Below, one piece after another: positions 31,688-62,387 of a stretch of DNA of 63,894 nt (position 1 is its first letter; every line of letters begins with the position of its first letter). The stretch lies in contig MU004240.1 in the NCBI GenBank assembly GCA_010405405.1, forward strand, positions 10,337 to 74,230, written 5' to 3'. The translations under genes and the position numbers were made by a program. Under the pieces are notes generated by a model. The model was not told the origin of the DNA. It ran no database searches and saw only the letters and a program-made list of their open reading frames with translations. Origin of the DNA: Microthyrium microscopicum (taxonomy: Eukaryota).

Positions 31688-32612
31688 AATGCGAAGTCTA
31701 CTCAACGTATTCTACTGCCCCGTCGCATCACCATCTTAGTGTGACAGCATTAATTGACGCAGTAAATTTCGAGAATCCATCACTTTCCTGTCAGCTCGTC
31801 GAATAGCGAAATGTAGATGAGTCGATGCAAGAGCTGAGTTGCTCCGAAGAAGGGCACCCAGTTCTGTTTCTTACTCTACTCTTACATCCTGCAGAGTTGA
31901 GTTTTTATATCAGGATCACCTTCTCAGAGCAACCCGTTAATCGAGGAGAAAGACATCATAGCAACGTCACAAAAACACCATACCTCCCATCGCATTCGAT
32001 GGCGCCCATAGAAAGCGATTGAAAATGAGTGCTGTGGCTACCGCCGAATGCAGCCAAACCACGCATTGCGTCGAGCGCGTCGCAAACCCCCGGAGAGTTG
32101 AGCAACGCTAAAATCAAAATGTTAAAGAAAACCGACAACGTAGAATACTGAGAAAGGGGATATTTTATAGACTCTGGCGTGTTTGCGTGTCTGGATAAGT
32201 ACTTTGCCCCTCCCCTAGATTTATGTACCCCACCACCGCTACCGGTCGGTACCTATCAGGCCAATCACTTTTTATACGACGTCTGTATTGTCTCCAACCA
32301 CCATACATAATTTTTACGCTTTTCGTTTCTGGAAAGTCTGGACAAGAGATATAGCTAGGCTGTTTCAAGCGACCGGAAGGAACAAGTCAAGGTCTCGGGA
32401 GTCGTGGCGACAAACAACCAAGAGCTCCTTTCTAATCTCAGAAAGCAGTTGCTAGAGGCCCAAATTAGGATTGCGGCTCATTTGCCGTAGCATGAACAAC
32501 ATATCTTCGAAACAAAGGCCATAACAATCATCTGGCTGGGAGATTCGCCATAACGTATCCCGCCTCTAGAAAACATCATACATCATTTCAGTCCTCTCAC
32601 AACCACAGCGAA

Positions 32613-40522: not shown

Positions 40523-40710
40523 CCGACCCGTCGCAAAATAAGTCGCGCGCTCCCATCAATCTTGATGTTTACCATATTCTCTGATGTCAAATCAAGTCTC
40601 ATCTTTCTCATCAACACGACTGTCGACCATGTGGAGGATGCGCTGAATTTGCCTTCTTTCGCGGTTAGAACTTGACCGGAGATGTCTGCCAGCTATTTGT
40701 CCACCGCTTG
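40523..40710. mobile_element. Degenerate copy of the fold-back element family, just 3' of RRP3
   Basis: Left arm gcaaaataagtcgcgcgctcccatcaatcttgatg matches the family; right arm tgccagctatttgtcca matches the 47.1-kb copy; no clear TSD. Confidence 0.55.
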
Positions 40711-40978
40711 GCTAGAGTACCTCTCCATGTCATTGTCTTATTTTGGTCACAAGTAGCCAGATTTTGATGTTGTCAAATCACACGTTTTAACACAAAGAGA
40801 TTGAACTGTAGAATTGTTGTAAGCTCAGAATACCCTTGGCTTCTTTGCTATTTGGAAAAGCATTCGAGTTCACAGCAATCGACAGCATGTAGCAAATAAT
40901 AGAATAGTTAGATACTTAAGCACGCAAGTGGTCTTCTTGAGTCTCCATGCTTCACTCATCATCTCATTATCAAGCAAG

Positions 40979-42332
40979 ATGTCTTCTGCTGATGAACCAA
41001 AAGCAATGGTAGGATTGCATCCTCTGTTTCATTTGAATCACTTTGTCACTTACTAACTATTTTGCAGTCCGAGGGGAAGGCAGATCCAAACGGAGACCTT
41101 TATGTGAGAGTTGAACAGCGAGATGGCTCCGATGAGCCAGCTCACTATCTTGTATCAGCACAGGTTCTTTCCACCGCATCTGATGATTTCAAAGCCATGA
41201 TCTCCGAGCACAGTTCCGTCACCGGTCAGCGAGCACTACGAAATAACCTTCCAATGATCACCATTCCAAACAGCAACGTGGCTGCCATGGGTTGCATATT
41301 CTGGCTCCTTCATCGTCACATTGGTCTTAACTTGGAGGAGTTGAGCCACAAACCTGTTCCATGCCTGCTTCTGGAAGTTTACATCGAGGCTCGGAATCGC
41401 GACGTATTCGTGCCGGGCATCAAGCAATGGATCACCGAACGTCTCTGCGCCGCCTTGGAGCTTCCCGCTCTTTCGAACAAAGACATTGCAGACTTAACCA
41501 CTGTTGCCTGGTATTTGGAAGATGAGAGCAAATTCGAACAATTAACATTGAGAGCTATGAAATCAATGCCGGCGGATTTTCTGAGTCGCTGGGAACGGCT
41601 GAGGAATCGTTATCCAGTCCCCAGTTCCATACCAGGTAAATCTATAATTATGATTGCCATGTTTATCACTAATGACTGTCAGTTGCAATTCGCAAGCAGA
41701 TTCGAGACTCATCTGAGAAATTACTTGAAACACTCCATCTCGGTGTAGAGCTCCTTGAAGAGAACACTTACGTGTATGATACGCTGGTCAAGCTATGTCG
41801 CAAATGTGGCAGACAAGTTGAAGGTGATGCGACGAAATGCCAAACTTGCGACAACTCGGACGTGATTCCTGGCCACTGCACAAAGGACGTTCGAGTTTCT
41901 CTCTACTTTCAAGCCATCCGAAAGGTTAACTTGTGGCCCAAATTAGTGCGCTTCAGGGAAGATTCGTTTTCTAAGCTTGTCCACGACTTCGATCGATTGA
42001 AGGATGACAAAACTAGTAATTGTGCACGTAATCAAGGCTGTCCACTATTCGGCGTGCTACGTCGTGTACGAGAGGCCGTGGAGAAACTTGGCGATGACTT
42101 GAAGGGTCTGAGCTTGAGTGATTTTAGGGACCATGCTGTTGAAATGGCTGAAGATAATTCGCGAATCGTCAGCGTGAATGCATTGAGGGATAACGCGGAT
42201 GCGGAAAATGCTGCTCACACCGTGGCTCCAACAGACTCTCCGGTAGAGCTACCGAAAGAAGCGCCAGCAGAGACTCCAACAGAGGTTCCAGCTGAAGTTC
42301 CAACAGAGGCTCATACAGGTGGTTCAATTTAG
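40979..42332 (+). CDS. BTB/POZ-domain protein with Cys-rich C-terminal region
   Basis: DPNGDLYVRV...YLVSAQVLSTASDDFKAM is a fungal BTB signature; CxxC pairs and CP motif in the last exon; two GT-AG introns. Confidence 0.8.
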
Positions 42333-42493
42333 AGATATCAATATTTTTGACAATGGTGCTCAGCTGAGAGATTCTTTGAGATGTCTTTTCCAGTGTCCGG
42401 CCAGGTAGTCATCGGGTTTTCGCTCCTGAAGCAGTTTGGCCAAACTATACGTTGGTCAGTGAAGCACTAGAGCAAGAGATGGCTATAACCAGA

Positions 42494-42714
42494 CAACGGC
42501 ACGGCAAAACAACCGGCGCGGTCCCATCAACGGCGATGGCTCCCGTGAACGCTACTAACTGTTAGAGAGAACATGCTTTGTTTCCCATGGTATTCAATAA
42601 AGGGCTGAAAAGTCAAGACGGTCTTTGGCAAATAAAGCACTCGATGATAAATTGTAACATATGCCAACCAACGAGGCTGATGGGGAGCGCGCTATCTATT
42701 CTACCACTTCGTTG
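42494..42714. mobile_element. Fold-back element family copy, 221 bp, TSD CCAGA
   Basis: CAACGG...CGTTG termini; CCAGA at 42489-93 and 42715-19; core collinear with the other copies. Confidence 0.82.
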
Positions 42715-43333
42715 CCAGATACAATTTCTCCAAGCAGTTCTTTATCATATCACACACTTTGATTCGATTGCTAGTCCTGCGTCGGAAGAACCTAAACCTA
42801 TCTGGACACTTGGGAAGAATGTCGGTGGAAGTGTTTGATTCCATTAGTGCCCTCCAAAGTTGCGAATCGCGCGATTTATATCCGGATGACTTCTGTGAGA
42901 GTAGTTCCTGGCATTTAGAGCAAAAAGAAGCACCGACAGCATTCCTATAACTTTCTCCATCTTCCCAATCCATGGCAGCGATCCTCGATGCTGACGCCTG
43001 GTCGAATTCTACGCTTGCTGGGCTGAGCTGGCTTAAAACGATAACGACTTGAGATTTGTTGGAGGGATAGGAGTTAAGCGTGTTTGCTCTGGAGTCGGGC
43101 TATATTTCTTTCCAGTATTATCACTAGAGTCTAGGCCAAACTCTTGTTCTTATTCGGCTTGGTACGTTGGGTAGGTCGCTCGAGCGATCTGGCGATAGGG
43201 TGGATTTGAGACAGCTCGCAGTTGATATTTAGAAAAAGCTCAGACGAAAAGACAATGATAGTTCATAGCTGATCGCGTGGCAATGTTGCTCTCCGAGGTT
43301 CAAATAAGATCTGTCTGCCTGAAAGCTAAGAGG

Positions 43334-43538
43334 CAACGGCATGGCAGGCGTACTCCCATCAACTCTGATGGCTACCACCAGCGCTGCTAACCAAAAGGTG
43401 CTTCAATTCCCATCGTATCTAATAAAGATCCCTAGTCTAAACGCCGGTTATGGCAAATATAGCACTCAATCACTAAGCGTAGCGTCTAGGTACCATCAGA
43501 GCTGACAGGGGTACGCCAATTATTTTGCCATGCCGTTA
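43334..43538. mobile_element. Fold-back element family copy, 205 bp, TSD AGAGG
   Basis: CAACGGCATGGCA...TGCCATGCCGTTA; AGAGG at 43329-33 and 43539-43. Confidence 0.85.
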
Positions 43539-44997
43539 AGAGGTTATGTATGGTAAGGATATTGCTTTTTGACAGTGTTGACTGCGCCACACTACGGAGG
43601 TACCTAACCACCTAACCACGAGAGCTTTAAAGTATCATATCTTTCTCCAAGACTAAGGCGGCTCACGCATCTTCCCGAACAGGTTGTGTTGCAGTCAAAA
43701 AGATGTTTTCCAACTTTGCTGGTAGCTGCTAATCAAATTGTGCGGTTGCCTATCAAGAACTTGACCTTTGACTTAACAAGCGTTTGGTTGAATAGCCTCA
43801 TATTGTATGGTGTAGACAAATGAGGCGAAGCATCGTATTTTTGCGCCCCAAGCCCAATGGAATACCGTCAGGTTGGGGCCAATGACTCCTCAGCCCGATA
43901 TATATATGCTCAGTTCTTACTTCTTGTCTTTTGTGTCTTTTCCTTTTCAGACGATCACCATGACTTTCAGAGTTTGCCCCTCTTGCAGCATTTCAAACAT
44001 CTTGTTGTCTCTCAAAGCGACTGGCAATTCCGAGGATTGTCTAAAAGCCCGGAATAGGGTCAAATATCCGCGTTTGATGAGGGATACCCAGTCTACTTGC
44101 ACTTCTGCTAGTGCTATCAGAAACCCCCTAATTTCTGTAAGTCTTCGACTTGTCCGCAAGGATCACGGACTCTAACAGTAGACAGCGAGTCGAGCGGCAC
44201 CATATCTCGAGACAACTGGTCTCATATAATGTACACAACTCTACATCCGTCGAGCAGCATGCCCTCCGCATGAGTACATGCGATGTTCGTGGACGCGATA
44301 AGCCCAACCGCAGTCACGAAGGACCATCGATTTGACAACTACTCCCATTCTGACGACAAAGGCAATTATGAGAAATTCAGAAGCAAGATTAGGCCAGAAT
44401 CTCGGTGTCGAAAACAATGCGTGCTGATAATTAAAGAGCTTGGGAGAATTGACCGGTCAGTTTGCATGCACGGCTTCATTCGTGCAGCACCATTTACCCG
44501 ATCGCGTTGTGTGATTGGAGTCGATAAACCTGGTCGGACACGTCAATCGGCATACATACGAGCCTAGGGTTATCAACATGGAAATCCAGAGGCTTTTGAC
44601 AAAGATTTCACAACTTGAAAGCCTTTCGAGGACCTGTCCAGCAGAAATTGTCAACGAGCCCGTAGGATTACTGGCTTTCAAAGCATTCTGGAGCGCCACT
44701 AGCTCCCGGTATTAGACCAGAAATAGGGGCAATTATCACTTGGTCAGATCCGTTTCAAATAAACCCATCCTTTGCGTCCTTTGCCTGTATCTTCAGATTC
44801 CTGGGAAATCTCTGCTCGTGGCCACAAAAGTATCCTGATGTACTCAAACAGCACCAGGTCACCAGATTGATAGCTAAGCTCTCTTGGTCTTAAAGCTATC
44901 TGCTCCACCAAGAATGCCGGCTTCGCTTTGATATTCCCTCTCCGCGCTTTCCGTCTTCTATGATCCAACCATTTTAATTTCTTTCTTTTCAGCCGCC

Positions 44998-47066
44998 ATG
45001 GAGCGTGCAATTGGGCGGACTGCGCAATCCGCTGAAGATGTATGCTCCGGACTTCAGCTCTTTCTTGATAACATTCCTCAACGCGATGCTGGCATCTACG
45101 AGTCAATCCATGAACTTCTCTCTCTCGCAAGAGGTCTCGGAGAACTGCGGCTTGATGCTGTTCAGTATAAACGCCTGCCAACTCCAATTGAAAAGGATAT
45201 TCGCATCTTTCTTGAAAGCATGAACCTGACTCTTGGACGAGTGCAAAATATGTTTGGAGAGACCAAATTAACCAAGCTTAATGGCGAAATAGCCTATTCA
45301 CATATATGGAACAACTTTTCAATGGAGATGGATGAGACTGTTGGTGGTGGTTTATGGCCAAGGTTGGAATTATACAATCTCTTTCTCAAGGCCATGCTCG
45401 AAAACGTTCGAGGGTATGTACTCAGTCTATACTCCTTCGTCCACCCCCTCATCATAAAACCCCTCGCGCCTTCCAGCACATTCATCAAACGCTCTGAAAA
45501 GACCATTTGGTCTTTTCAGCGTGAAACCGTAAACCACCAATCGCACTCGATGGTGGCCACAGCACTCGATGGTGGCCACAGCACTCGATGGTGGCCACAG
45601 CACTCGATCAGAAGCACCTTCTATGGTAACCCCCACAAGAGGATACTTATACATCATAGAGAAACAGTCGAACCAAAATCACTGGGCAGACACCGTCAAA
45701 AGATTACTAGACTTCTACAAAGCCAGCAGCCTAGTGAACCTGGCTATCCAAGTGGTACGGCGTGTAATCCTAAACTCACTCTCGAGGGACAAAATAAATG
45801 AGCCGTTTCGACGACCACTCCCATCGATTACGATGACTGCCAAAGCTTTTCTTCAAGATTGATTACTTTAATTCCTATCAGCGTCGTAAAATTCATATCG
45901 AATTAACCAAGACCATGGTAATCAAAGCAGTCACTCTTTAAGAAGTGTTATGGCAGCCATCGCAATCGATGGGGGTTAGTTGTTGAAACGGCTCATTTAT
46001 TTTGTCCACGCAGAGACTCAATAGTCCCTTCTCACGAATGACAGATACCTCCTCTCCCATCTCACCACACGTGTCGTTTCCACCGATGCCACCAGCCTGG
46101 CCAGGCGGACCGCCTGCACCATCATTTCCATTTCCAGGCTCGCTCGATATGCGTCAATACGGACCCAGCTCGCCAACCATCTCCACTGCTTCCTGGTCCA
46201 CCCACACCAGCGGCTCCATGAACTCTGCCAGCAACCACTGGGCCTCTTTCGTCTTCACTGGCCGCCACGACTCCACCCCCTTTCCCGCCGCCCTGCGTCG
46301 CCAAAGCATCGTCTACGGCCGCCCTATGCCCAGCGCCCTCGATCGTCTCGCTGAAGACAACTACAGCCAAGTAAGCCGCATCGCCTTTGAAGCCGATGAC
46401 ATGGAAGCCCGCTTCTATTGCCGATCCGCTGACGCCCGCGCCCGCATCCTACTGCTCAAGCGTGACTCAGCAGGCGCCTTACTGTTCTTCTGTATCCCCC
46501 TAACAGCACTCAAACTCACCCGCGATGCCGCGACCCTCGACTTGTACCGCATGGACCGGCAGCAACGCAAGTATGAGATCTGGGCATCCCTCAACTTCGC
46601 CGACTACGAGCGCCTCGTCCTCGCATACAGCACTTTCGCAGCGCTCAAGAACCAAGATGCCGTGATGGCACCCGAAGGTCTACACGACGATTACTTTCAC
46701 ACCAATGCGCGCGAAGAGAAGCTCCTGTTCGGCGGCATCACCGTCTATCCACCCTCACGGCGCCATGCATTACGGTTGTTCCGCGATACCCTCTCAGGTG
46801 GACTGCGGTTTGAAGCGCGGCCACTACGTGGGCCGAAGATGCATGTGCCGCTGTGGACGGCCTTTGTGGCTCGCGAAGTGCACGAGACTGGATGGGTAAG
46901 GCGAGTGGGTGGGACTCAATTGGAGCTCAAGAGGCTTGACCAACATATTTTTGTGGATGGATATATACCAACACTGGGACGGAGTGGGCGGTTTGTGATT
47001 GATTTTGACAGTCGAGATGACTGTGACAGTTTTATACGCGCGATCAAGGAGGCTCGCATGGATTGA
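44998..47066 (+). CDS. Conserved-looking fungal hypothetical protein (helical N-terminus, Pro/Ser linker, beta-rich C-terminal modules)
   Basis: Exons 44998-45413, 45660-45754 and 46045-47066 join in frame through GTATGT..TAG and GTACGG..CTCAC..CAG introns. Confidence 0.8.
45543..45608 (+). repeat. Perfect 19-bp tandem repeat GCACTCGATGGTGGCCACA x3.5, intronic
   Basis: Units start at 45543, 45562, 45581 and 45600 (partial). Confidence 0.95.
45779..46015. mobile_element. Fold-back element (divergent subfamily), 237 bp, TSD ACTCA, inside intron 2
   Basis: ~90-bp imperfect inverted arms starting GGACAAAATAAATGAGCCGTTTC; ACTCA at 45774-78 and 46016-20. Confidence 0.88.
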
Positions 47067-47096
47067 TATACGTTTATTTTTACAAGCACGCGATGG

Positions 47097-47213
47097 TGGA
47101 CGGATAGCTGGCATGTTACCATCAAAGACGATGAGTAGGAACGTACTCGACCATAAAGTGTAGTACGTGGCACCAGCGATGTTGATGGAAGCGTTTGCCA
47201 GCTATCTTGTCCA
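47097..47213. mobile_element. Short (internally deleted) hairpin relative of the fold-back family
   Basis: tggacggatagctggca..ccatcaa / ttgatgg..tgccagctatcttgtcca inverted arms plus an inner acgtact/agtacgt stem; no clear TSD. Confidence 0.6.
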
Positions 47214-47537
47214 GAGGCTGAACAGCCTGATTTACTTACCGGTTTGGCAGCGATTGTTATATTTGGGAGGAAAGATTGGATAAAATGACGACTATCACGG
47301 CTTTTACGATTGACATGTATACAACGACGAAGATACCCACCCAGCACATCAGAATGGACAAATTTGAGCTCAGTATTAGTATTCCGTGAAGCTGGTACTA
47401 CAAATACAGGAAGTTATACAAACAAATCGGTATTACCCACTGGGCGTGTGCTCAACCACCAAAGTAGGAGCATCAACCCCGAAGGGTGATCTCACCACAA
47501 AGGCAGGAGAACAACGCCCAATGGGGTCAACAGTACA

Positions 47538-50147
47538 TTAATATCCGTCGGAGAAGTACTCTGGATTCAATGCAATTGCATCGTAATCCAGCTCCTCTTC
47601 TTCCTCCTCGTCCGACACATACACAGGCCGCGGCCCATCCGCCTCACTGTCCCAATCCTCCTCCACCAACTCCTCCTCTTCCTCCTCCTCACTATCCCCC
47701 TGAGGCAGGAAGGATCCGCCAGGCGCCACCCCAGCATCACCCTCCTCCTCAACCTCGATCAACTCCTCCTCCTCCTCCTCCTCCTCCACCTCCGCGCCAG
47801 GGGCGTCCCCCTCAGCCGCCACCACCTCAGGCTGCACCGGGCCGATGCCGTAGATGACGTGCAGCTTTGAGTAGTCTAGGTGCCTAGAAAAAGGGGTGCG
47901 TCCTCCCTTTTTGGCACCTATCACTCGCTGCACGGCTTCGGCCGCGGTGCTAGCCGGCGAATGCTCGGCTGCCTTTTTGGTGGTGCGCGGCTTGCGCTTC
48001 TTCTCACACGCCGCATCCATCTGGCGGTTCAGCATGATCTCTTGCTGCTTCCGCATCCAGTCGTGGTTGTTGGTGATCCACACCACTTCCTTGGCACCCC
48101 GCTCTTCGGGTGTGAAGAGCGCGTACTTGACTACTGGGTCATCGTCGAACTCGTCGTCGGCGATTTCCTCGTCGTCAAGGTGAGAATCATGGGTGCCATT
48201 TTTGGATTTTGCGACGACTTTGGCGCGCTCGATGGCGGCAATTGCTCTTGAGCGGACTCGGGTTATTTCATAGTACCCCTCGTCGTCAAGAGACACTTCG
48301 TGTTCCACAATTCTATTGATTTCCGCGGCAAGCTCATCCTCGGCTAGAAGATCTTCTTCGGTGGGGACGAATATCTTTGCTGGGACAAACTTTTTGGTTG
48401 CTCTTCGCTTTCTGGGAAGGAAATCTTCGTCATCAGCTAGAGCGCTTTCTGCCAATGCTGTCAGATCAATAGGTCCGTCAAGAACTGATGTGAGATCGAT
48501 GGGGGAGCCTGAAGTAGAGCCGCTTTGTTGGGATTGGTTTTTGCGAGGACGTCCACGCTTAGCTGGTGGTTTCGATGAAGCGGTGCTTGGCGTGCTTCGG
48601 CCAGAGCCTTGAGATGGATCGGGTGTAGGTAATTGACTGAGTGCCTTGCGTTTTCGACTGAGTGCTGAGACTCGAGGTGCTCTAATAGCGGTAGTCTCAG
48701 TGGGTGTGGAGTCGGTATGAGCTGTGCTTGATGGTGTTGTGGCGGATGATGAAGAAGCTGCAGGATTTGATGATGTCGGAGCAGATGATGATGGGGCTGC
48801 AGTCTTCGATGAAGATCGTGTTGCTCTCGTGGATGGTGTTGGGGCAGTTCGCTGTCTTTTGGATGGTCTAGCAGATTCGTCTTCTTCATTTTGATTAGAC
48901 TGGATGTCTGTAGTTGCTGGTGAGTCAACGGCGCGCGGTCGTTTTGTTCGAGAGTTGGGAACTTCAGGAATGGCAAATCCTTCATTATCAACACGTCTCT
49001 CTGGTGATGGTCGGTCTTCAGGCTGTGGGGTCTGGCTCGCGCTTGAGCTTGCACCTGGACTTCTGCTGCGTCGCACGTTTTCCTTGCGTTGTCTACGCTT
49101 GGATTTCTCCGCTGCCTGGTAAACAGCAGGGGGCAAGGCACCTCCAACCTTGAGGCGATGACCAACTTCACGAAAGGATTTGACAGTCATGTTGCCAGCT
49201 TTGGTTTTTCGAAATTCAGCCAATCGCTTCAGAACAGTAGCTTCGCCAGCTTTGACAGTGAAGACAACTTCGCGGACGGTTCGAGCATAGTTGTTCATAC
49301 GGGCAGCAAGAACTAAAGCAGCGCCAATGTAACCAGCTGGCTGTCGTCCAGTAACGATCCAATCACGATTCCAGCGGGAGACAATTTTGACAGCATCGGT
49401 AGCGACTTTTTTGGTGTCACCAGCAAACTCCATACGTGCAGCAAGTCGATGAATGATGGCTTCGATTTCAAGGGACTGCGTCTTTTTCACGTTTTCTTCC
49501 ATGGAGACATCTCTGACAAATCTTTTGTAGGTGGCACCAAGTTCATAGACATTTTGCTTGATTTTTTCGGCAATGTCAATGAGAAGTACTGGCTCATTTC
49601 TCTCTCGACAAACGATGTAGAGACAGACAGCTACACTTTCAAGGAGAGGTTTGCGGATATGCATTCTTGCGAGTTGGTAGATGTGAAGAGCGCGGTCAAC
49701 AAATTTGGTGATCATGAGAGTTCCAGCTAGTCGAGTCATTTCTTCGCGAGCAGCTCGGAGGTTGGCATCTTGGACTTCGTCAGGGGCTCGACCACCTCTT
49801 CTAAAGGCAGTGCCGCTGGACTTTGCCATACGCTGGCCAGCATGGACAGTGGTTCCTTGAACAAGGGCGGCTCCATTGGGAGCTTCTCCAAAGGTGACAT
49901 CGTTGACAATAATAGAATCGCTGACAATGACTGCACATCCCATGCAGACAAGCTGACCGTTGACTTCCTTAACTTCAGAGCTGATGCAGGCTTTACATTT
50001 TGGGCCGCTGTTGTTGTTGTAGTTGGTGCTGGAATTAGAATTGGCAGTTTCTGGAGCTGGAGTGTTTCTGAGACTTGGTGGGCGTAAACTGGGATGTCGA
50101 GGCTGGCGGCGTCCAGCGACAGGTCGAACCGGGGCAACAGTAGACAT
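47538..50147 (-). CDS. BRF1: RNA polymerase III transcription factor IIIB subunit Brf1
   Basis: Zn ribbon CKAC..CMGC, VTFGE..NGAALVQG, cyclin folds with RDWIVTGRQP and AARMNN, C-terminal Brf1 block (KEVVWITNNHDW, SRHLDY); single exon, likely ATG at 50147. Confidence 0.92.
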   Translation of the reverse strand: MSTVAPVRPVAGRRQPRHPSLRPPSLRNTPAPETANSNSSTNYNNNSGPKCKACISSEVKEVNGQLVCMGCAVIVSDSIIVNDVTFGEAPNGAALVQGTTVHAGQRMAKSSGTAFRRGGRAPDEVQDANLRAAREEMTRLAGTLMITKFVDRALHIYQLARMHIRKPLLESVAVCLYIVCRERNEPVLLIDIAEKIKQNVYELGATYKRFVRDVSMEENVKKTQSLEIEAIIHRLAARMEFAGDTKKVATDAVKIVSRWNRDWIVTGRQPAGYIGAALVLAARMNNYARTVREVVFTVKAGEATVLKRLAEFRKTKAGNMTVKSFREVGHRLKVGGALPPAVYQAAEKSKRRQRKENVRRSRSPGASSSASQTPQPEDRPSPERRVDNEGFAIPEVPNSRTKRPRAVDSPATTDIQSNQNEEDESARPSKRQRTAPTPSTRATRSSSKTAAPSSSAPTSSNPAASSSSATTPSSTAHTDSTPTETTAIRAPRVSALSRKRKALSQLPTPDPSQGSGRSTPSTASSKPPAKRGRPRKNQSQQSGSTSGSPIDLTSVLDGPIDLTALAESALADDEDFLPRKRRATKKFVPAKIFVPTEEDLLAEDELAAEINRIVEHEVSLDDEGYYEITRVRSRAIAAIERAKVVAKSKNGTHDSHLDDEEIADDEFDDDPVVKYALFTPEERGAKEVVWITNNHDWMRKQQEIMLNRQMDAACEKKRKPRTTKKAAEHSPASTAAEAVQRVIGAKKGGRTPFSRHLDYSKLHVIYGIGPVQPEVVAAEGDAPGAEVEEEEEEEELIEVEEEGDAGVAPGGSFLPQGDSEEEEEEELVEEDWDSEADGPRPVYVSDEEEEEELDYDAIALNPEYFSDGY

Positions 50148-51024
50148 CTTGAATGACAGAATGCGAGCAAGGCTGGCAAGGCTGAGTGTTAATTGTTGAC
50201 GATGGTTTGGTTGGTGTAGGTTGGAGAAGTTGGGCGACAAATTTTGGAGACGTGGAGTCAGAGTGTTAAAAGTTAAAGAGGTTGAGCAGTCAAAGCAGAA
50301 TTTGGTGCGGGGGATAGCATACACTAATCGAATCTGGGCTTTACTAAGCAGCGTGTTGCCTAGCGAGCTCATGACATGGGGTAAAATACAGCGGGCAGGA
50401 GCGACTCTCATGAGGAGGAAGGTACGAGGGGCATCCGGGCACCGTGTTCAATTCAGGGAAGCGACCACCTTATTAATGGTGGATCGTCCCTTCCTTTTCA
50501 GGTCACCTCAACACCCGCCCCTTCTGGCTTCGGCTCAACCCCGAGTCGTCCAATATTGTGTATTGTGTTTCGAAATTATTCAATGTCCATGTCAAGAGCT
50601 AGGCAAAATAAATAGCATTCTCTTATGGGAGCGTAAACCAAAAAATCCGAGTTTGGTCTTCAAATTCAACGATTCTCCTCAGGCTTCAAATCGTCAACAC
50701 CTTTTTGCACTCTAATTCTAAAACTCAAGTGCATATTGCAATAGCGGCAATCAAAGGTTAAAAAGCAGTAAAAACTTGATCATTAAAGCATCTTACGCTG
50801 CTATACACTAGAAAAGTCTACATAGTACCTTGCGGCAACTGGAAAAATCCAACCTCTTACAAGCAACAAAAAGCAACAACAACAAGCAACAACAAGCAAA
50901 CCAAGCGCAAAAATACAAGTCGCTAAACGCCCTAATGCATAAACATGAAAAAGCAGAGCGTACAAGCCCAGGCACCTGACTAATACATATCCATCATACC
51001 ATCCCTTTAGAACATTACCATCGC

Positions 51025-54000
51025 TCAACCACTGCACATGACACAGGACTCGGGATTTTCAATGCTACAGGCGAGTGCTGCGTCAGCATAGATGTCGCCT
51101 TCGCGGTCTTCATCTGCGTCTTCAGCCTGCTTTGTAGCGGGTGTCTTTTCATCAAGGGAGGCAGTGGGCAGCTCTTCCTTAGAGACTGGCGCATCTGGGT
51201 TGTCAGCAGTGACGAGGCGAGGCGAGTCGCCCTCTGGAACATCAGCCTTGAATGGTGGTGCGCTGAGCGGCGTGCTGGCCTCCTTCTTTGCCTTGGAAGG
51301 TGAAGTAGTGGCAGCAGCACCGTCTGTGGCATGGCCGTTGGTGCCATTGGTGCCGTTAGTGCCGTTGGTGCCGTTAGTGGTGCCATTAGTGCCATTCTTC
51401 GCAGTTCCGTTGGTGCCATTAACACCATTGGGCGTCTTGGATGCGTACATAGGACGTGGGACGGCAGAGACCGTTCCCTGGGCAGAGCCACGCTTCTTCA
51501 TGCCTGGATGACGGGCCACATTGGTGTCGGCGACCTTGAGAGCCTCTTGGTCGACAGTGAACTGGATAGGTGCCGAAGCAGCCATGGTACGAAGATAGTA
51601 CATGCCAGTCTTGAGACCAAGCTTCCAGCCGGCAAAATGCATGCTGGTGATCTTGCCCATGGTAGGTTCCTTCATATGGATGTTGAGTGACTGGGACTGA
51701 TCGATAAATGCACCACGGTCGGCAGCCATTTGGATAACTTGACGTTGCGAGATTTCCCACACTGTCTTGTACAAAGCTTTGAGGTCGTCTGGGATGTTTG
51801 GAATGCGTTGAATGGAGCCGCCATCAGCAATGATACGGTTCTTCATGTTGTCAGACCATAGACCCATATCAACAAGATCCTTCAACAGCCAAGGGTTCAC
51901 AACCTGGAATTCTCCAGCAAGAACACGACGACTATAGATGTTGGATGTATAAGGCTCGAAGCACTCATTGAAGCCCAGAATCTGGGATGTAGATGCAGTA
52001 GGCATAGGTGCACAGAGCAATGAGTTGCGGATACCATGTTTAGCAATGTCAGCCTTCAGTGATTCCCAGTCCCAGAGATCAGTGGGGGTGATGTCCCACA
52101 TATCATACTGAAGGATTCCTTGAGAGACTGGTGAGCCTTCGTATGTGGAGTATGGTCCATCTCGCTTGGCAATCTCGCAAGACGAGGTAAGAGCAGCGTG
52201 GTAGATGGTCTCGAATATTTGAATGTTGAGTTGGCGCGCTTCTGGGGAATCGAAAGGTAGACGCAGAGCCAAGAAAGCATCTGCGAGACCTTGAACACCA
52301 ACACCAATAGGGCGATGTCTCATGTTGCTGTTGCGAGCCTCAATGACGGGATAGTGGTTGACATCAATGATCTTGTTCAAGTTGCGAATCACGACTTGAG
52401 TAATTTCATGCAGCTTCTTGAAATCATACTCGCCATTTGCAACATCCACGAAGGTAGGAAGAGCAATTGACGCCAAGTTGCAAACAGCGACCTCATCAGG
52501 CGCCGAGTATTCGATGATTTCAGTGCAAAGATTTGAGCTGCGGATTGTGCCAAGGTTCTTTTGGTTGCTCTTGCGGTTGCAAGCATCTTTGTAGAGCATA
52601 TATGGGTTGCCAGTCTCGACTTGAGCCTGAAGAATGGCATACCAAAGCTTCTGGGCGCGGATGGTCTCACGACCTCTACCTTCTTTCTCGTACCTTGATT
52701 AAGTTAGTTAAGATATTCATAGCAGTGCCTGGATACATACTTAATAAAGAGTTCCTCAAACTCATCGCCGTAGACGTCAGCGAGGCCTGGTGCTTCACTT
52801 GGACAGAACAATGTCCAGTCTGCGTTCTCTTGCACTCGCTTCATGAACAGATCTGGGATCCATAGAGCATAGAAAAGATCGCGGGCGCGGCTCTCCTCTT
52901 TACCGTGATTCTTTCGGAGATCAAGGAAGCTGAACACATCTGCGTGCCATGGCTCAAGGTAGATAGCGAAAGCACCTGGACGTTTGTTTCCACCTTGATC
53001 AACATATCGAGCAGTGGCGTCATAGCATCGAAGCATAGGAACAAGACCATTTGACGTACCATTTGTGCCGGCAATGTACGAACCAGTGGCGCGAATGCGA
53101 TGAATGTTGAGACCAATACCACCAGCAGTCTTGGAGATCATGGCACAGGTCTTGAGTGTATCATAAATACCCTCAATACTGTCTGCCTTCATATCAACAA
53201 GGAAACAAGATGAAAGTTGTGGGTTTGGTGTGCCAGCATTGAAGAGGGTAGGGGATGCGTGTGTGAAGTACTTGTTTGACATGAGGTTGTAGGTTTCGAT
53301 GACACTCTCGATATCGTCTTCGTGAATACCAACAGCCACACGCATAATCATGTGCTGTGGACGCTCAGCAACCTTGCCATCGATTCTGAGAAGGTATGAG
53401 CGTTCAAGAGTCTTGAAGCCGAAATATTGGTAGTTGAAATCACGGTCATAGACAATTGCGGAGTTTAACTCTTCTGAATATTTCATGACAATGTTGTAGA
53501 TCTTGTCCGAGATCATGGGGCTAGGCTTGTTGTTTTTTGGGTTGACATAGGTGTAGAGATCTGAAACAACAGCGGAGAACTGTTTTTTGGTTTGCTTGTG
53601 AAGATTGGAGACGGCGATACGAGCTGCAAGAATGGCGTAGTCGGGATGGGTTACGGTCATGTATGCAGCGGTTTCAGCAGCCTAATGATGTTAGGAATCT
53701 AGCTCAAATAGTGACGGTATTATCAACTCACCAAATTGTCCAACTCAACGGTTGTCACACCCTGATACACACCAGAGATGACCTTCTGGGTGATTGCAGC
53801 AGGGTCTACATGCTCAGGATCAAGACCGTAACACAGTCTTGAGACACGAGCTGTGATCTTGTCGAACTGGACGCGCTCCTTGCGGTTGTCTGCGAGGTTG
53901 GTCAGTATTTTGCCACATGGTGCCATGAGAGTAAATGAGAACTACGCGTTGCAAACTGGAGAAGACGCGTAGGGTGTAATCTATGCTAGGGAATAGAGGT

Positions 54001-54025
54001 ACATACCGCGTTTGTACACGAACAT
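51025..54025 (-). CDS. RNR1: Ribonucleotide reductase large subunit
   Basis: MFVYKR.. ATP cone, [42 protein letters not shown]-terminal CxxC; three introns. Confidence 0.98.
53944..53970. promoter_or_regulatory. Two perfect MCB (ACGCGT) sites in RNR1 intron 1
   Basis: ACGCGT at 53944-49 and 53965-70. Confidence 0.55.
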
Positions 54026-54274
54026 AGTGACAAAGGCACTTGGTAATTGAATGGATGATTGAAAGTTTGTCGATTGACTTGGAGGCAAAGCTGAACTGGG
54101 GCAGTGCAATTGTCGGTGTCAGATGTGTAAAGAGGATTTAAGAGGACCTAAGCAGTCTCTGTTGTACAGAAACGATATTGCCAGGAAATGTTGGAGGATG
54201 AGAAGTGGTGGAGGAGCTGGAGGGGTTGGTGGTGAGGAAAGAGCAAAGCAAGCCCATTAATGTAGGAAACAAAA

Positions 54275-54313
54275 GTCGCGTTCGTTGACGCGACTCGCGT
54301 GGTTGGGACGCGC
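54275..54313. promoter_or_regulatory. MCB-like (ACGCG/CGCGT) cluster upstream of RNR1
   Basis: Four CGCG cores in 40 bp, ~260 bp upstream of the ATG; MBF control of RNR large-subunit genes is established in yeasts. Confidence 0.7.
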
Positions 54314-55504
54314 TTTCCCGCTACCGCTGCCCACCGTAGCTGATTAATCCCCTGCCATTCAACCACTTACAGACCTATTGCGAGATGGGCAATCATAGAT
54401 ATCTAGTGTAGTCAAATTTCTTGATACGATTAATGGTCAACATTACATTTTCTTCATAAGTGCTGAAAGATTAGGTACTTATGGCAATCGAAGCTTCTCG
54501 GGGCTCGCTCCACGTTGCCAAACCACATATCAAAAAATGGTATGCAAAACCACACACGACAGAGATACTTCTCACGTATGCAAGTTGTTCATTCAAAGCA
54601 ATGTTTTAGTCACTTCTATTACTACCATTAGTTTTCGCTCGCTGACTACTCCGCTCGACGCCTCACAAAATCAGTCCAAGCAATCCGCTCTCAGTGTGCT
54701 CCCTAACCGCAAAGTCAAAAGCACAAAGTCCACACCTTGAAATGCCAGTAACCACAAGACTCTGGTGGATCCTTTCGATAAACCAGACGAGTCCAAGTAT
54801 CAACAATCTCGAACATACCATGGTGAAATAGAATCAGCATGTTCTGAGCACTTCTTGTTGCCGCCGGAAATGTCGAGCTCATCGTATAACAGCGCGATGC
54901 TGTAAACAATCAAATGGCACAGATTCCGTGAAGGTAGATGATTATTGGCAGTACGAGTGTTCGACTGTCAATGCATTGCTGCTGCTCAACAAAGTGTCCG
55001 GGGAGCGAGCTTTTAGCACCAGAATCCAAAGTGTTTGTCAAACCCAAACGCCAAGCAGTATGCTCCCTTCCGCAGACCTGATGAGCTAAACGATTTGTGG
55101 TGAGGGGAAATGTCTTCGAACGTCCTAGGTAGTACCGTGGTAGTCCATACTGGAAGGACGTGGTCATGATGCTTGAAAGAACTTGACATCAAGGATTATG
55201 TACTGAGAATTCAAGCGCTCGGAGTCGAAATGACGCGCTTCGTTCCCAATAAAACAAGAAAGCAGGTTAAAAATGGATCGATATATATCAAACAGCAGTC
55301 GTCATCGTGTCGTGCAATCGAATGGCTATTATATCCTGCGTTCGGGGAGAAGGAGAGGAGGAGAGGCAGGATTGCGATTTGTGTCGTGCGCAGAGCGCGA
55401 CATAGTCGAAAGTAAGGAATTGGGCCGTGTTCCAAGTGAGAGTGCGAGTGTATATCAAGATTTGGGGAATGGAAAGTAGGGTTTGCGGGAACATGGGAAA
55501 GGTA

Positions 55505-57223
55505 TTATGCTTAAAGGTGTCAGTGATGATTGATGCAGTTTGAAAAGATACATACCGCAGCAAAAGACTTTCATGAACTTCTGCCAGGCTGTGGGCTTGG
55601 GCTCGTCTTGTCCTGGCTTTGGAGGACCCTGCGGGGACTGCGACGCCACTTGGGCACCGTTTTGAAGGGTGTTGCCCCTTGACCCAAGGTTTTGGTTGCT
55701 CTGTTGGAACTGCGCAACTGTCGAGCCTTCTGGGTGCCGAAAGTCTTGAGCAGAGGCTCTTTTGGACGCAAGTGCAGGATCCGAACCATATCCAGGATCT
55801 CCAGCCCTTCGTTGACCATTTCTAGCAGCCAGCGCTTGGGCATTACGACCAGTGCCGGGTTGTTTGGGAAGATCAGCATTCAAGCGATCATGCGGGATTT
55901 GGGTCTTGTTTCGATGGACTTCTCGGTTTGATGTGTTAGGAACGTGTTGTAGATGAGCGGCAGAGGGATGCTGCTTCATGGCCTCCCAACCCTTACCATC
56001 GTTGATCTTCATCCAATCGTAGATTCCATCTTCAGTTTCTCCGGTGTTCTTGAGTGCTTGTGTGAACAAATCTCGAAGGTAGTTGTAATCTGGCTCATCT
56101 TCAAACCCAAGATTTCGAACATAACTCAAATATTTGTTGAATTCCTCTGCAACAAAAGTTAGCCACCATTTCGTGCCATGCTTTAAGGAGATATACCTGG
56201 AAAAGTCTCACAGAGATCTTTGATTGCAGTAGTCTGTTTCTTTTCACCAATCTTCTCATATTTCTGCTTGTTTGTTGCGGCTTTCAAACCCTGCCACGGT
56301 AGACCACCTCGGAGAAAGTACATGAAAACATGACCGAGTGCCTCAAGATCATCTCGTCGAGACTGTTCTCGGCCCAAATGCGTGTTGATACTCATGTAAC
56401 GAGCAGTGCCTGACAGTGACTTTCGTTCTCTGTATGGAATGTGTTGCTTCGTCTTGGGATCCCGATACTGCTTGGCCATGCCAAAGTCAACAACATGTAT
56501 GACATTTGCGGTTTTCGTGCCTGGTCGTCCAATGAGAAAATTGTCAGGTTTGATGTCGCGGTAGATGAGGTTCCGTTCGTGAATAGTTTGGACGCGAGAT
56601 AACTGAGGGGAAGATTTAGCTAGAATGGCGCAAGGCTGGACTCGAAGAACTTACCATTTGTTTTGCAACCATAACCACAGTCTTGATAGAGAACCTGCGA
56701 TGACAGTGATCGAATAAATCCTCTAGACTCGGGCCCAACAAATCAATAACGAGAATGTTATGAAGCCCTTCCTGGCCAAAATAGTATACATTTGGAATGC
56801 CGGCTACCGAAATGTTAGCAATAGAAAAGTGATGCAAGAGCATAGATCTTGATCGAGTCCGCGCAGAGGCACGGGCCATAATTTGTTGAGGCAACACGAT
56901 AAGCAAAGGGATTGTGCTAAGATTGAAGGCTCTCGAGGTATGGGAATAATGCCGGCAGTGAGGAAAACTTACGACATCCGACAAGAATTTTGTAGGTTCG
57001 GTATTCGTCTCGAAGTTGTGGGGCATCGCTTTTGCGTGGTTCCTGGTCATTGTTAGCAGGAGAAATGAAGATACTATGGACAATAGACACATACAAATTT
57101 GATGGCGACCTGTTGATTATTGAGGAGATTTGTTCCCTCGAAAATGACACCAAAAGAGCCCTCGCCAATCTTCTTCCCTACGCGGTAGTGAACTCCCACT
57201 ACGTTGGAAGAGGACGACGACAT
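55505..57223 (-). CDS. YCK1: Casein kinase I, Yck1/Yck2/Cki1 (membrane-anchored) type
   Basis: [67 protein letters not shown]-terminal di-Cys (FCCA* after the last intron). Confidence 0.93.
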
Positions 57224-58728
57224 GGCAAGGGACAATCGTAAGAACTACGGGGTTGAAGCCAGCGTGATAACAGGAATTGGAAAGGCTAACAGGACGATTG
57301 ATGAGTTGCGGTCAGGCTGGTATTGATTGTGAAGTCGCGAGGCGTGGGAACGTTGGAGCGGCGGAGTGGGAGATGGGGAGATGGGGAGAAAGGCGTAGGG
57401 GTTGCCTAGCGCTGGGTTGGGCTAAAAGAGAGAGCCAACAAAACAGAGTAGAAATGGGGTTGAGACTTGTTGCGATGGTGGTGAGATTGATGGAGCGGAT
57501 TGGAGATGGACGTCAAGGAATAGTGGACTGGTCGGGTGCCAAAGGAATCTCGTGAGAGCGGAGGAAGCTGGAAAGGAAGTTGTTGTGAGTGGAGAAGAGA
57601 AAGGCCGTTGAGGCTTGAGGGAATTGGGAAGCACCGACTGAGCGTCTGCGCCTTCCACCAAAGCAAAGCACTGCATCGCACTGGCCCAAAATGCCAAGAA
57701 CCTTCTGGCGGGCTGGCAGGCGCAGATGGGCGAATTGCGCCTGTGCGTTCGCGCTACCTGGGGCTCTCCTGCCATTTTAGGATTGGTTGTTGCAACTTCA
57801 AGAGTGCTTGCCGCTTTCGTTATAACCTCTTGTGTTCTCCTCTCACCACCATTGACCAACCTCTAGACCGCCATCTCTACACATTGACTAATGACTACAG
57901 GTCCACTGGCAAAGTCTTGGAAGTCTGATGCTATTTTCGTGATCCTGAATCTACCAAGCAGCTGAAGCTCAGAACCATCAATCTGCCAATTCAACGGACT
58001 GCAGTCGGCATAATCTGGAGGCTAGCTCTAGGGGCCTATGCCGCCATTCTGGTGGCTTTCATTATGCCCAATCTTACCCGTTACGGAGTACTCTAGTCAG
58101 AACCAGAACGCGAAATTCCATTGAGTATTTACACTAGCTTCACCTTTCTTCCTTTTCTACACGAGCAGTCACACATTGAACAACTCAACCAGCATTACCT
58201 TTCATTATGAACTCAATCGCCGCAACCTTTGGACCAAAGTCACCAATGGCACACGCATATCAGCAAATGCAACCATTCCCTGTTTAACAAACCATTGTGA
58301 GGCCATTGCCATCTTGTATCCATTTGTTCTGATGACCTTTCGCTACCAGCTCTCCCTCCCCTCATCAAAGTTATCCCAGTACCAATGTTTCAAGTCCAAT
58401 AACCTTGCCTTATTGGCTTATTTTAAGGAAAACGAACAAGCAAGTGCATGAGTAGCATTTATCTATTATTCTTCCGCATAACGCGCTTCTTCTCCTTGTC
58501 CCTACTCTGTTTTCACCATGTTGAGGCATTGGGAAATTAGTATCAGTACCTATTTGGTACACTGAAGGCGAGTCGGAACCAAACTGCAGTTTGAACCTGC
58601 CTCTAGACTAATCAACAAACCACAGGGCTTTTTCCGAAGACATTCCACTTCAGATTATTCTTGTTCTGCAATCCAGTACATTGACGCGTCGATAGTTCAT
58701 CGAATGCAATAGAAAGTATGCTGCCTCC

Positions 58729-58941
58729 CAAAGGGTCGACAAAGTAAATGGCGCGCTCCCAACAAGTGCGATGGCTCCCATATAAGACGATCTGCTATCA
58801 AGTGCTTTATTTGCCATAGAGCGCGTTCAGACTTCGATTATTTATCGAATGCGATGGGAAATATAACACATTTGAATTAACAACGTTCGTGGGAGCCATC
58901 GACGCTGATGGGAGAACGCCAGTTATTTTGTTCATCGGTTG
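58729..58941. mobile_element. Fold-back element family copy, 213 bp, TSD CCTCC (opposite orientation to the 42.5 and 43.3 kb copies)
   Basis: CCTCC at 58724-28 and 58942-46; core collinear with the reverse complement of 43334-43538. Confidence 0.85.
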
Positions 58942-59131
58942 CCTCCCAGCATACTTCATTTAGAAAACCATCAGCGACACTTCATGATGGAAGGACGTCC
59001 CTTATTTCAGGCTTAATTCCTTGAAACATGTCATTAATGATTGATTTCTATTATTCTAACGAGTGACAAGCGTTTATCGGTCGTGCCCCAAAGAAACAGT
59101 TTCTAACCTGCTACTCCAACCAGCTGCACGC

Positions 59132-60754
59132 TCAGAAAGGAGTTTCGAAGGGTCTCTCTGCTTGAGGAGTTATTCGAGCAAGATGTCGTCTTTGACCATC
59201 GTCCCAATCGATCAACGCGGAATGAGCCGTGACTCGGTTCTAATTTATGCAATGTTAACAACCTGATTCGTTGACCACGGGAATTCAAGAGTTGTAACTT
59301 ACATCCCAGACCACGACGGTTCCTGGAGCCCACTTGACTCTGGCTTGAAAATCAGCACCCTTGGAGATGTGATCGTAGAGGAAGCGTAACAGATAGTCGC
59401 TTTCTTCCTTCTTGAGCTGAGGGATACGGCGGGTGACTATCAGACGAGTTAGATTTTGCGGAACATAAGAGCAGGGAAAACATACACTGTGGGTTCACGA
59501 AGAGTGCTTTCTCTCCAGTGGACTAGATGTTGTCAGACTCTATGCTTCGATATCACACATCTCGTCTTTTTGCGATAAGCTTACTGGATGTGTGCGAATG
59601 AGCGGATGCTCAGATGTGATCGGCTCTCTGCGAACAATGCCACCACGCTGCTTGCTGTTATTCGCCTGCTCGTGTGCAGAGTGAATAGCAGTCAGTCCGT
59701 GGAGCCGCTTTTGGAAGTCCGGTGAGAGTCTCTTGTACGCCGCAGCCTGGTTCACGAAGAGAGTATCACCACCAGCAGCCGGACCATCAAGGAGATAAAG
59801 GAAGGTGGTTCCAGGGGGTTGGTTCTCATATCTATTCCATATCAGTTAATTTGACTCCGTATCATCTTCAGAGCTACACTTACGTGACATCAGAGTGCCA
59901 TCTCACCGAATTGGTATTCTCTACAAAAAAGTCCCGAGCAGTAGTATCATCCGCGCCTCGATGGACGAGATGAACCTCTGGATGGTCTGCAGGTGCTCCA
60001 CTAGCAGGATGGATATGATGGCGTCCAAAGTAGCCGCCAAAGTCTAGTGCTTCCTGGATGGGAATGTCGGCAAAGTCTTGATCTCTGAATGCTACGACCT
60101 TGCGCTCGGCGACAAATCGAGCTAGTTCGTCTTTGCCGGCGTCGGTCAACTTGCTTAGCTGGATGCCATGGACTTCTGAGCCAGTGTTTCCGGTCAACTC
60201 GACAACTCTGGAAGCACCACCGAGGAGATTCGGGTATGACGTATCTGCGTCTTTGCCATGCTCGATATGCTCGAATGGTTGAAGTGGTGGGTATGCTAAT
60301 AGGTGTCAATGACTAGGAAGGAAACCGACCAGTGGACGAAAATCCGGTGTAAACCAATCATCTCCAATGACTTCCAATTACCACGCTGCTAGTTCAGATT
60401 ACATATGCCCCATCAGATGTTTATTGTTCAATGACACTTGATAGGAGATATAGCAGTCACTACTTTAAAGTGGTGATGGCGGCCATCATCGTCAATGGGA
60501 GCGTGCTCTTTCAACCACCTGTTAGTTGTCTTGAGTACTCTGGGTTTCTTACTCTTGTTCGCGTCCCAGGTTGGTAGATAATGCTTATACTTGGCAGCTG
60601 GTTGCGTTTCGGTTCCCTTCTCTTCAGCTTCCTTGCTATATACCTTTGGACCGGAGACAAAGGCTTCTGAGTATTGGGTGGGACCTGTTGGTGGTTCACG
60701 GAGTGCGTGAGTGAACACTCCAGAGGCAACATCAGCTGGTGGAGGAGGAGCCAT
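59132..60754 (-). CDS. Alpha-ketoglutarate-dependent sulfonate/taurine dioxygenase (TauD/Jlp1 family)
   Basis: GSEVHGIQLS, VAFRDQD, WHSDVT (HxD), GGDTLF, HPLIRTHP, LFVNPQF, ERPFETPF*; multiple introns. Confidence 0.92.
60325..60525. mobile_element. Degenerate fold-back family copy inside TauD intron 1
   Basis: agcagtcact...gatggcggccatc...atgggagcgtgc matches the right arm of the 45.8-kb and other copies; the host intron is 257 nt versus ~50-60 nt for its neighbours. Confidence 0.55.
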
Positions 60755-61921
60755 AGTTTTTCAGTATCTCGTTGAGAGGTGGTTATGCAGTGACTTGATT
60801 GAATAACAGATGTCTGAAAACAGCAACTGAATGTTCAAGTTTAAATGTAGAACAGGTACCATAGCACCGGTAAATATATTTAAATGTAAGGAAACAGCCG
60901 TGATCGGTTCATGTTAGAGTATGAGCCAAATTGCGAAATATATTCGCCATTCTTGCGACTCGTGGGGACGATCAGACGTTTTGACCATGATAGCTGTTGT
61001 AAGATAATGACAATTCTACTACTTTACAGCGCTCCAGGTCGTCCTCGTGCAACTCAACGCTTTGGTTCTGGTTTATTATCGTATTTCTGCAGCCCTGTGA
61101 AAACTCACTTGACTTTTCGAGTCTTTCCATAATCAAAACATTCCATTCTTCCATCATCATTATGATAACAGTGCACGACCGAAGCATCCATCTGCTTCAG
61201 GGCACTAACCTATAAAATCCCAACCGCCCCCATGTCAGATAGAGATACGTCCAACGATTATGGAAGATTTTGAGTTTGCCTCTTTGTATCCGGGAATATC
61301 GGAGAGCTATCGGAGTGAAGTTGGCAGATAACTTAATTCATTGGATAGTTGGTATGTACCGTGATGTTTGACATCTCCACTGGCAGTTATGATGTTGATA
61401 TAACCTGAAAGCACGCAATCATATACGTTGCTGACAACTTCGTCAATCATGTACCCCGCAAGGTGGACCAACTTCAATTCTAACTTTAATCTAATCTTTA
61501 CTTGAATAAGAGAATGGTACCGAGTGTGCCTTTCTTGCTTTCAGGGCGTTGTATCATGATTCGAGACGGGACAAGCGAGACATTTTTGGCCCAGCTTCCA
61601 CCAACGGCGACGTTCTCCACCAATGCTACTAAAGACAAAAGGCTATATTTTCCATCACACTATAACGAGTCAGAACATGACCTTGGAGGCAAACACAGTG
61701 ATCATATCTAAATAGAGCAGTTTGTTTTATCCTATAAGCTTGAGAAAGTCATACATTGCGGATACCCATCTTAACAATCAGCGATAACGACAACAATCCA
61801 CTTGATTTGAAAGCAACTGCTTGATTTGTTTTTTTTTCCATTACCATTTAATTTATGAAATCAGCTTTGTGAAAATAAGCACTGTCCATTGAAGTCTTGT
61901 CCATGTTATAATGTAGTCACT

Positions 61922-62135
61922 CTAACGGGTCGGCAAAATAAATGGCGCGCTCCCATGTGCCTCGTTGGCTCCCAAACGCTACGATCTTTTATCGCAATGC
62001 TTTATTTACCATTAAAGATATTCAGATTCGAGCAATTTATCGAGTACAATGGAAATATAGTATTTCTTGCTCAAGAGCGTTGGTGGCAGCCATCAGAGTT
62101 GATGGTAGAACGCCATTTATTCTGCCGTGCCGTTG
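61922..62135. mobile_element. Fold-back element family copy, 214 bp, TSD TCACT
   Basis: cggcaaaataaatggcg / cgccatttattctgccg arms; TCACT at 61917-21 and 62136-40. Confidence 0.85.
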
Positions 62136-62387
62136 TCACTCAAAACGAGCCAACTGTTTTGGCTGTTGGTCAAACAGCTTCTGAAGTGTTGATTCTCCCC
62201 AAATATTAGTCATGAAGTAAGCCTATGCTACTAATGTTTGGGCTCCTCGAAATCGTTGTGGTTTGTTCTTCTTCGGCGCGATATAATCTGGAGAAAGGTG
62301 CAAAAGGTCAAAGTTTCCAGGACTTTAGGACTAACACTACACTCATGATATATTCAAAAATAAGCGAAATTAGTCTTACAACGTCTA

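Follow-up and report, generated by a model that had tools for sequence, protein, structure and literature searches.

Decaying miniature inverted-repeat elements with varied 5-6 bp target-site duplications point to a candidate Tc1-like parent in the genome of Microthyrium microscopicum

The IS630-Tc1-mariner grouping of transposons rests partly on the use of TA as target and on its duplication (PMC7325037). Structural work links this duplication to base flipping at the TA, and Sleeping Beauty, even as the H187V target-site mutant, departs from TA in only ~0.5% of insertions (PMC8934666). The departures from TA found in print are the TAA/TAAA targets of the pogo Fot elements (PMC7386202), and the new fungal family Dici retains TA (PMC13469147). 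In this paper, we describe a family of transposable elements of the miniature inverted-repeat kind (MITEs) in a 63,894-bp stretch of Microthyrium microscopicum DNA (contig MU004240.1, positions 10,337-74,230, G000:C11:10337-74230 in our notation; this whole stretch is hereafter called the window), which is also dispersed through the rest of the genome (37.1 Mb, 58 contigs). The target-site duplications (TSDs) of the family are 5-6 bp long and varied in sequence, and the new element of this study is a candidate Tc1-like parent with TSDs of this kind, to which one relic points.

The candidate parent resembles the Tc1 family (DD34E, IS630-Tc1-mariner) in the DD34E triad, the DDE_3 domain and the fold found in its homologues, in their C-terminal G-x-x-T-K-Y-like end, and in the layout of one open reading frame (ORF) of ~380-400 amino acids between short inverted ends; it differs from that family in its TSD, which is varied, 5-6 bp long and never TA. 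With the pogo Fot and Fot-like elements it shares a fungal host, membership of the same group and a TSD longer than TA, but theirs is a fixed, TA-containing TAA/TAAA of 3-4 bp made by a DDD enzyme, whereas a varied one of 5-6 bp goes with DD34E here (PMC7386202). Among MITEs, the orphan families 375 (74 bp, 19-bp terminal inverted repeat, 6-bp TSD) and 819 (511 bp, 41-bp terminal inverted repeat, 5-bp TSD) of the ascomycete Zymoseptoria tritici are similar in having 5-6 bp TSDs and no associated family listed; their lengths differ from ours, and the likeness is one of tabulated description only, as the table carries no sequence (PMC4522978). The EFT MITEs of Epichloe festucae are likewise old, diverged, high in copy number and below the size limit of repeat-induced point mutation (RIP), with RIP-killed relics of the parent for three families, but the TSDs examined among those listed are TA, AT, TWY or 8 bp, none of these being of 5-6 bp (PMC3227409). 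Finally, the IS3EU and GingerRoot elements usually make a 6-bp TSD, but they have TA..TA ends and an integrase-like transposase, whereas our elements have C..G ends and a Tc1-like enzyme (PMC10045372).

The evidence begins with the ends of the elements and their flanks. BLAST searches with the window copies at 61923 and 45779 returned 166 and 62 candidates, of which 40 were scored in each case, and a 19-nt end pattern matched the genome 194 times against 0 for a control. From all retrieved DNA we obtained 94 end pairs; 10 pairs longer than 250 bp (nine spans joining neighbouring copies, and a relic on contig C3 described below) and one misplaced end (L026) were left out, and the remaining 83 two-ended copies, which were picked by similarity or end match and are therefore the better-kept ones, were chosen without regard to their flanks. 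Exact TSDs of 5 or 6 bp were found at 49 of the 83 copies, against 0.26 expected from shuffled flanks. They comprise 25 of 5 bp and 14 of 6 bp among 65 copies of type A (0.2 for shuffled flanks), and 10 of 5 bp among 18 copies of type B (0.06), so that 5 bp is the dominant length in both types. The duplicated sequences are varied, those of type A having 56% GC and a mild purine-first bias, and TA/TA flanks occur at none of the 83 copies. In the window, all five intact copies carry exact TSDs. One B copy (G000:C2:4134912-4135147; L044/L068) has as its flank a 13-bp direct repeat that reaches 5 bases into the left end, and no 5-6 bp TSD.

Both types have fixed ends. The layout is a terminal C, nine variable bases and then RCAAAATAA at positions 11-19, and together with an inner CCATC-N6-GATGG core this is common to all subfamilies; C..G termini are present in the great majority of copies, and each of the four subfamily consensuses pairs with the opposite end at 26-34 of its first 34 positions. 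Lengths are mostly 211-214 bp in A, typically 213 bp, and mostly 234-237 bp in B, typically 236 bp, B having 12 additional bases in both arms. Clustering of the 65 A copies yielded the subfamilies A1 (18), A2 (32) and A3 (7) and 8 outliers, and the mean divergence from the subfamily consensus is 8-11%. Copy number was estimated from 40 evenly placed regions totalling 398 kb (95% GC-rich; one region was cut back by 2 kb because of a known copy), in which 18 profile matches, five of them of at least 170 bp, fell in 10 regions, with 0 in the reversed control. The 18 matches were merged by eye into ~14 elements, which extrapolates genome-wide to a total of some 1,300 copies and fragments, and to ~470 near-full copies, loose figures because the copies cluster and the sample is so GC-rich; the 22 kb of the window that hold the family are about 10 times denser in copies than the sample average. 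A single metagenome locus matching the 21-nt end motif lay in a bacterial-looking contig with no element past the motif, and was set aside as chance. Short, non-coding, uniform in length, bounded by inverted ends and TSDs, and present in hundreds of copies, the elements are MITEs, and their copies look like ordinary decaying selfish DNA.

The link to a transposase comes from a search with the B-end pattern, in which one long pair was found, a 1,351-bp element at G000:C3:2831407-2832757 (the C3 relic). Its 44-bp inverted ends are 89% identical and are flanked by the exact TSD AGGAG, and its first 31 bp match the B ends at means of 27.2 and 26.6 of 31 positions (36 ends). The C3 relic has 21% GC amid surroundings of 45-55%, and its RIP indices are 1.53 for TpA/ApT and 0.27 for (CpA+TpG)/(ApC+GpT). 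A single broken ORF on its minus strand spans from ~125 bp from one end to ~75 bp from the other. With stops written as X, a phmmer search with this frame returned 38 matches among 1.84 billion representatives, the best being P0001 (E 6.7e-28, 28% over residues 46-403), and the reverse search from P0001 recovered the relic at E 2.9e-25. At 149 conserved columns the relic retains 57 residues and differs at 92, and 47 of these differences, against a null of 15.6 and a null maximum of 27, need no change other than C>T or G>A, the direction of RIP; of the catalytic triad, the second D and the E survive, and N stands in place of the first D. Pfam gave 0 matches on the six frames of the relic, and a word-based protein search with it gave 0 among 6,620 candidates. 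The C3 relic is also absent from the 36 genome-wide matches to DDE_3, 34 of which contain in-frame TAA or TAG stops, so that further members of the clade could escape Pfam searches.

The homologues of the relic are mostly unnamed or labelled 'hypothetical', and the hosts that are named (Curvularia clavata, Bipolaris maydis, Setomelanomma holmii and Rutstroemia) are filamentous ascomycetes. Together with the block pattern of the window, where a gene-rich block of ~47% GC at ~24,100-62,600 is flanked by AT-rich blocks of ~19% GC, these hosts point to a RIP-active filamentous ascomycete as the source of the DNA. Full-length homologues have ~370-400 residues; intact ones include USP75848.1 and USP79996.1 of Curvularia clavata and the environmental-metagenome proteins P0001 and P0044. 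The spacing from D to E is 34 in all 35 placeable proteins (of 61); five of the 12 homologues scanned pass the Pfam DDE_3 cut-off, HTH_Tnp_Tc3_2 matches five of the 12, all below its cut-off, and the N-terminus is helical in the predicted model. The IS630 model is the best scorer for 10 of 10 homologues, again below its cut-off in every case. Sleeping Beauty (5cr4) is the closest solved structure both by sequence (E 1e-24) and by fold, and the top fold matches of the predicted model of P0044 are 5cr4 and Mos1. In the clade, the second catalytic Asp is followed by the motif DxDSAH, whose Ser-Ala stands at P247-K248 of Sleeping Beauty, and between two aligned blocks the clade has ~43 profile positions against ~30 residues in Sleeping Beauty, a longer stretch that presumably includes the clamp loop. 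This Ser-Ala and the longer stretch might be a cause of the changed target, since P247, K248 and these regions of Sleeping Beauty have been implicated in target choice (PMC8934666).

We consider it likely that the family consists of decaying non-autonomous MITEs mobilised in trans by a fungal Tc1-like DD34E lineage. Shared ends and a shared TSD length suggest mobilisation by such an enzyme, strongly for B and indirectly for A. On this account, a transposase of the clade would have bound the ends of the element, cut it out and inserted it at varied non-TA targets with a stagger of 5-6 bp, and host repair at the staggered joint would have produced the duplication. Short non-coding copies would have multiplied in trans, with their ends swapped or homogenised into subfamilies, and the A subfamilies would have been moved by a related transposase whose outer ends differed. 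RIP would then have destroyed the long coding copies, the ~0.2-kb MITEs being mostly too short for it, with decay since; with the long coding copies gone, the family would now be immobile in this strain. Both the TSDs and the candidate Tc1-type parent had escaped the sequence-only reading of the window, and they carry the main interest of the family.

A broader proposal is that a Tc1-like DD34E lineage found across filamentous ascomycetes dropped TA targeting and inserts at varied sites, with strands joined 5-6 bp apart in the manner of a retroviral integrase, and is the undescribed parent of orphan fungal MITEs whose TSDs are of 5-6 bp; we advance it tentatively, as slightly less probable than its negation. 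No Tc1-type family with varied 5-6 bp TSDs was found in the literature that was searched, Repbase, Dfam and most subscription journals lying outside the coverage. As none of the 83 copies is flanked by TA and the relic itself is flanked by AGGAG, the family, which probably works like a Tc1 system, is not filed as a canonical Tc1 member.

Several observations weigh against a Tc1-like origin of the whole family. Only one relic carries the transposase link: no second copy came up in the genome by DNA, pattern or protein search, and the two candidates that arose, at C16:52981 (an unrelated AT-rich match) and C13:1160450 (unrelated), were discarded. The A ends match the first 31 bp of the C3 relic at 15-16 of 31 positions only, and no A-type parent is present among the A-end matches listed (100 of 194). 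RIP-converted A-type ends were also sought; the 14 matches all lay in or beside GC-normal DNA, and none was a long element. The relic has no more than its first ~31 bp in common with B, so that the B copies are not simple deletion products of it. Five scans of viral and prokaryote collections for homologue DNA gave 0 matches, and so supplied no flanks from other fungi. A survey of Bipolaris maydis, where a homologue is present, gives only TA for 29 Tc1-mariner copies (PMC4112212), although it may have kept only TA-flanked copies. Lastly, substitution is lower at paired arm positions (0.04-0.09) than in the central loop (0.11-0.15) of the MITEs. Pure decay is not a complete explanation of this difference, for which copy selection and hidden sub-subfamilies could be responsible.

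That a different enzyme, of IS3EU-type, hAT-like or some unknown kind, moved the MITEs, and that the C3 relic is a B-ended element with a captured Tc1 gene, or else a Tc1 that inserted into a B copy and shed its own ends, seems to us unlikely. The existence of one relic only speaks for such an origin, and 5-bp footprints that are RSS-like (recombination signal sequence) or hAT-like are known from other superfamilies. Against it, the MITEs lack TA..TA termini, with C..G in the place where IS3EU elements have TA..TA (PMC10045372), and the homologues score best with the IS630 model (below its cut-off) and with Sleeping Beauty, not the integrase-like enzymes of the IS3/IS481 type. Moreover, the ORF fills the C3 relic, there is no inner TA-flanked repeat, and TA is absent from the stretch that separates the left end repeat from position 70, which leaves no room for a nested TA-flanked element; an inserted TA-type Tc1 within a B copy is rejected on these grounds. 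The unmutated RCAAAATAA is also missing from all 12 of the further DDE_3 relic regions examined, the majority of which are truncated on one side. A supposed resemblance of the ends to the heptamer-nonamer arrangement of RSS/Transib was dropped after the transposase had been identified.

Quite improbable is a split history, in which B was moved by the Tc1-like lineage and the commoner A subfamilies, after replacement of their ends, by an unrelated transposase. Relative to the relic, the A ends do differ over the outer 10 bp and past position ~24, and the share of 6-bp TSDs is 14/39 in A and 0/10 in B. However, A and B have in common their terminal C, the RCAAAATAA of positions 11-19 and all of the inner core, the B profile matches A copies at E 1e-9, and the 5-bp TSD prevails in both types.

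The sequence-only reading had further suggested that the copies keep their arm complementarity and may be retained as structural RNA or DNA elements, and covariation and Rfam searches had been proposed as checks. Each intact window copy is indeed a single imperfect hairpin, with folding z-scores of -5.9 (61922-62136) and -7.3 (58720-58950), and strong folding follows from being an inverted repeat. Among 72 copies of the four subfamilies, 657 arm pairs were broken on one side and 47 altered on both, and 27 were compensated against 23.7 expected from shuffled halves; the highest subfamily, A2, had 14 against 9.5 (P 0.058). As compensation is not beyond chance, a selected RNA structure is unsupported, and Rfam gave 0 matches on the MITE copies. 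The matching of the arms belongs to the master copy of each subfamily and is not maintained in single copies: the left 46 bp of A2 is a near-mirror of the right arm common to A1 and A2, so that the long arm matches probably arose by arm-to-arm copying within master elements. Selection for structure, which the strong folding, the slower change at paired positions, the A2 figure and the tenfold local density might favour, is thus very improbable in view of the 657 one-sided breaks, the near-expected compensation, the many fragments, the absence of an Rfam match and a folding inherent to any inverted repeat. The copies had also been described as free of a RIP signature. This holds for the base composition of most of them (~45% GC), but C>T change occurs at 0.07-0.125 at CpA against 0.04-0.065 at CpT, up to ~2.5-fold higher, a mild bias of RIP type that lacks the GC collapse of long repeats.

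In the window, the eight copies first listed were compared with a profile hidden Markov model (HMM) trained on 29 genome copies, among which the copy at 61923 is the only one from the window. All eight matched it, seven of them from outside the training set, at E 3e-42 to 2e-4, and the reversed GC-rich part of the window, used as control, gave 0 matches at a cut-off of E<=10. The family that had been proposed is thus real, and its further description as an old, high-copy, MITE-like family below the size where RIP acts strongly is supported by the copy number, the TSDs and the genome sample. The intact copies are two A-type MITEs on the minus strand, at 42494..42714 (221 bp, TSD CCAGA of 5 bp, E 5.9e-32) and 43334..43538 (205 bp, with an 8-bp deletion in one arm, TSD AGAGG of 5 bp, E 3.4e-42), and three copies on the plus strand, namely the B-type MITE at 45779..46015 (237 bp, TSD ACTCA of 5 bp, E 1.1e-9), whose ends match the C3 relic, the A3 copy at 58729..58941 (213 bp, TSD CCTCC of 5 bp, E 1.9e-40) and the A1 copy at 61923..62135 (213 bp, TSD TCACTC of 6 bp), which had been placed at 61922-62135 and starts one base later. 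None of the five contains an ORF of at least 100 amino acids. The copy at 45779 had been counted within a single family; it is related by HMM, but belongs to the separate 236-bp subfamily with different outer ends.

The remaining listed copies are eroded. The degenerate copy at 40523..40710 (plus strand; E 9.5e-6 over 40526-40631) directly follows the stop of an ORF at 39226-40497 and has no target duplication at the bounds first given, and a one-arm fragment at 47117..47220 (minus strand; E 2.2e-4, and 7.7e-7 in a second profile search) lies downstream of an ORF ending at 47066. A third, with eroded ends, at 60325..60525 (no strand assigned; E 1.5e-8 over ~60330-60518, and 3.5e-11 in the second search) shows no target duplication. 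To these the HMM added a fragment at ~61582..61718 (minus strand, E 8.8e-8) and, beyond the range first surveyed, a weak arm-like one at ~31979..32057 (plus strand, E 9e-4). The mini-hairpin CCATC-N6-GATGG that had been assigned to each arm occurs 15 times in the window with at most one mismatch, 14 of them within or adjoining copies or family-like fragments. The orientation-specific core that had been thought to be shared by four copies proved to be mostly the interior of the palindrome itself, whose loop measures ~30 nt.

The copy at 45779..46015 probably sits in an intron, as the pieces of the X5 contig break off at 45412 and restart at 46044, spanning it. The simplest splice joint from these contig ends (45413 to 46045) puts the ORFs at 44998 and 46038 out of frame with each other, and the gene at 44998-47066 may have an additional small exon or an alternative start. 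Contigs from four of six sequencing runs (three studies) showed 0 clean empty sites in the 15 joints listed of 111, which is evidence neither for nor against. At 45533-45608 there are four tandem 19-bp units with the GATGG motif of the family, with loose contig ends and an inverted match to 32006-32051; the two are possibly another related repeat family, the former in the same probable intron.

Ordinary TA-flanked elements, in contrast to the MITE family, are present in the same genome. In the window, a 202-bp MITE with 40-bp perfect arms at 27927-28128 was read as TA-flanked within a CTAG site, and its outermost letters CTACCT recur in a 1,629-bp DDE_3 element at G000:C5:1322092-1323720 (L197:93-1721; GC 36-48%, frame-broken ORF), which is likewise TA-flanked and is a Tc1-like element spared by RIP. 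A 480-bp TA-flanked element at 28794-29273, with 31-bp perfect arms starting CAGTG and an AT-rich interior, is probably a RIP-touched derivative of Tc1/pogo type. The 566-bp element at 31122-31687 has the ends GGAGAGGG...CCCTCTCC and a 3-bp AAT duplication, and we take it to be Harbinger-like. A tRNA gene at 62388-62485, ~100 bp before the AT-rich block, was the single Rfam match on 24000-63000; at 98 nt against a 71-position model, it probably contains an intron.

If the proposed origin is true, a naturally occurring DD34E enzyme whose cuts lie 5-6 bp apart at varied targets would provide a direct comparison for the stagger and the target choice of this fold. It would also mean that the classification of MITEs by TSD length misassigns families of this kind, and that pipelines demanding TA flanks miss their intact members.

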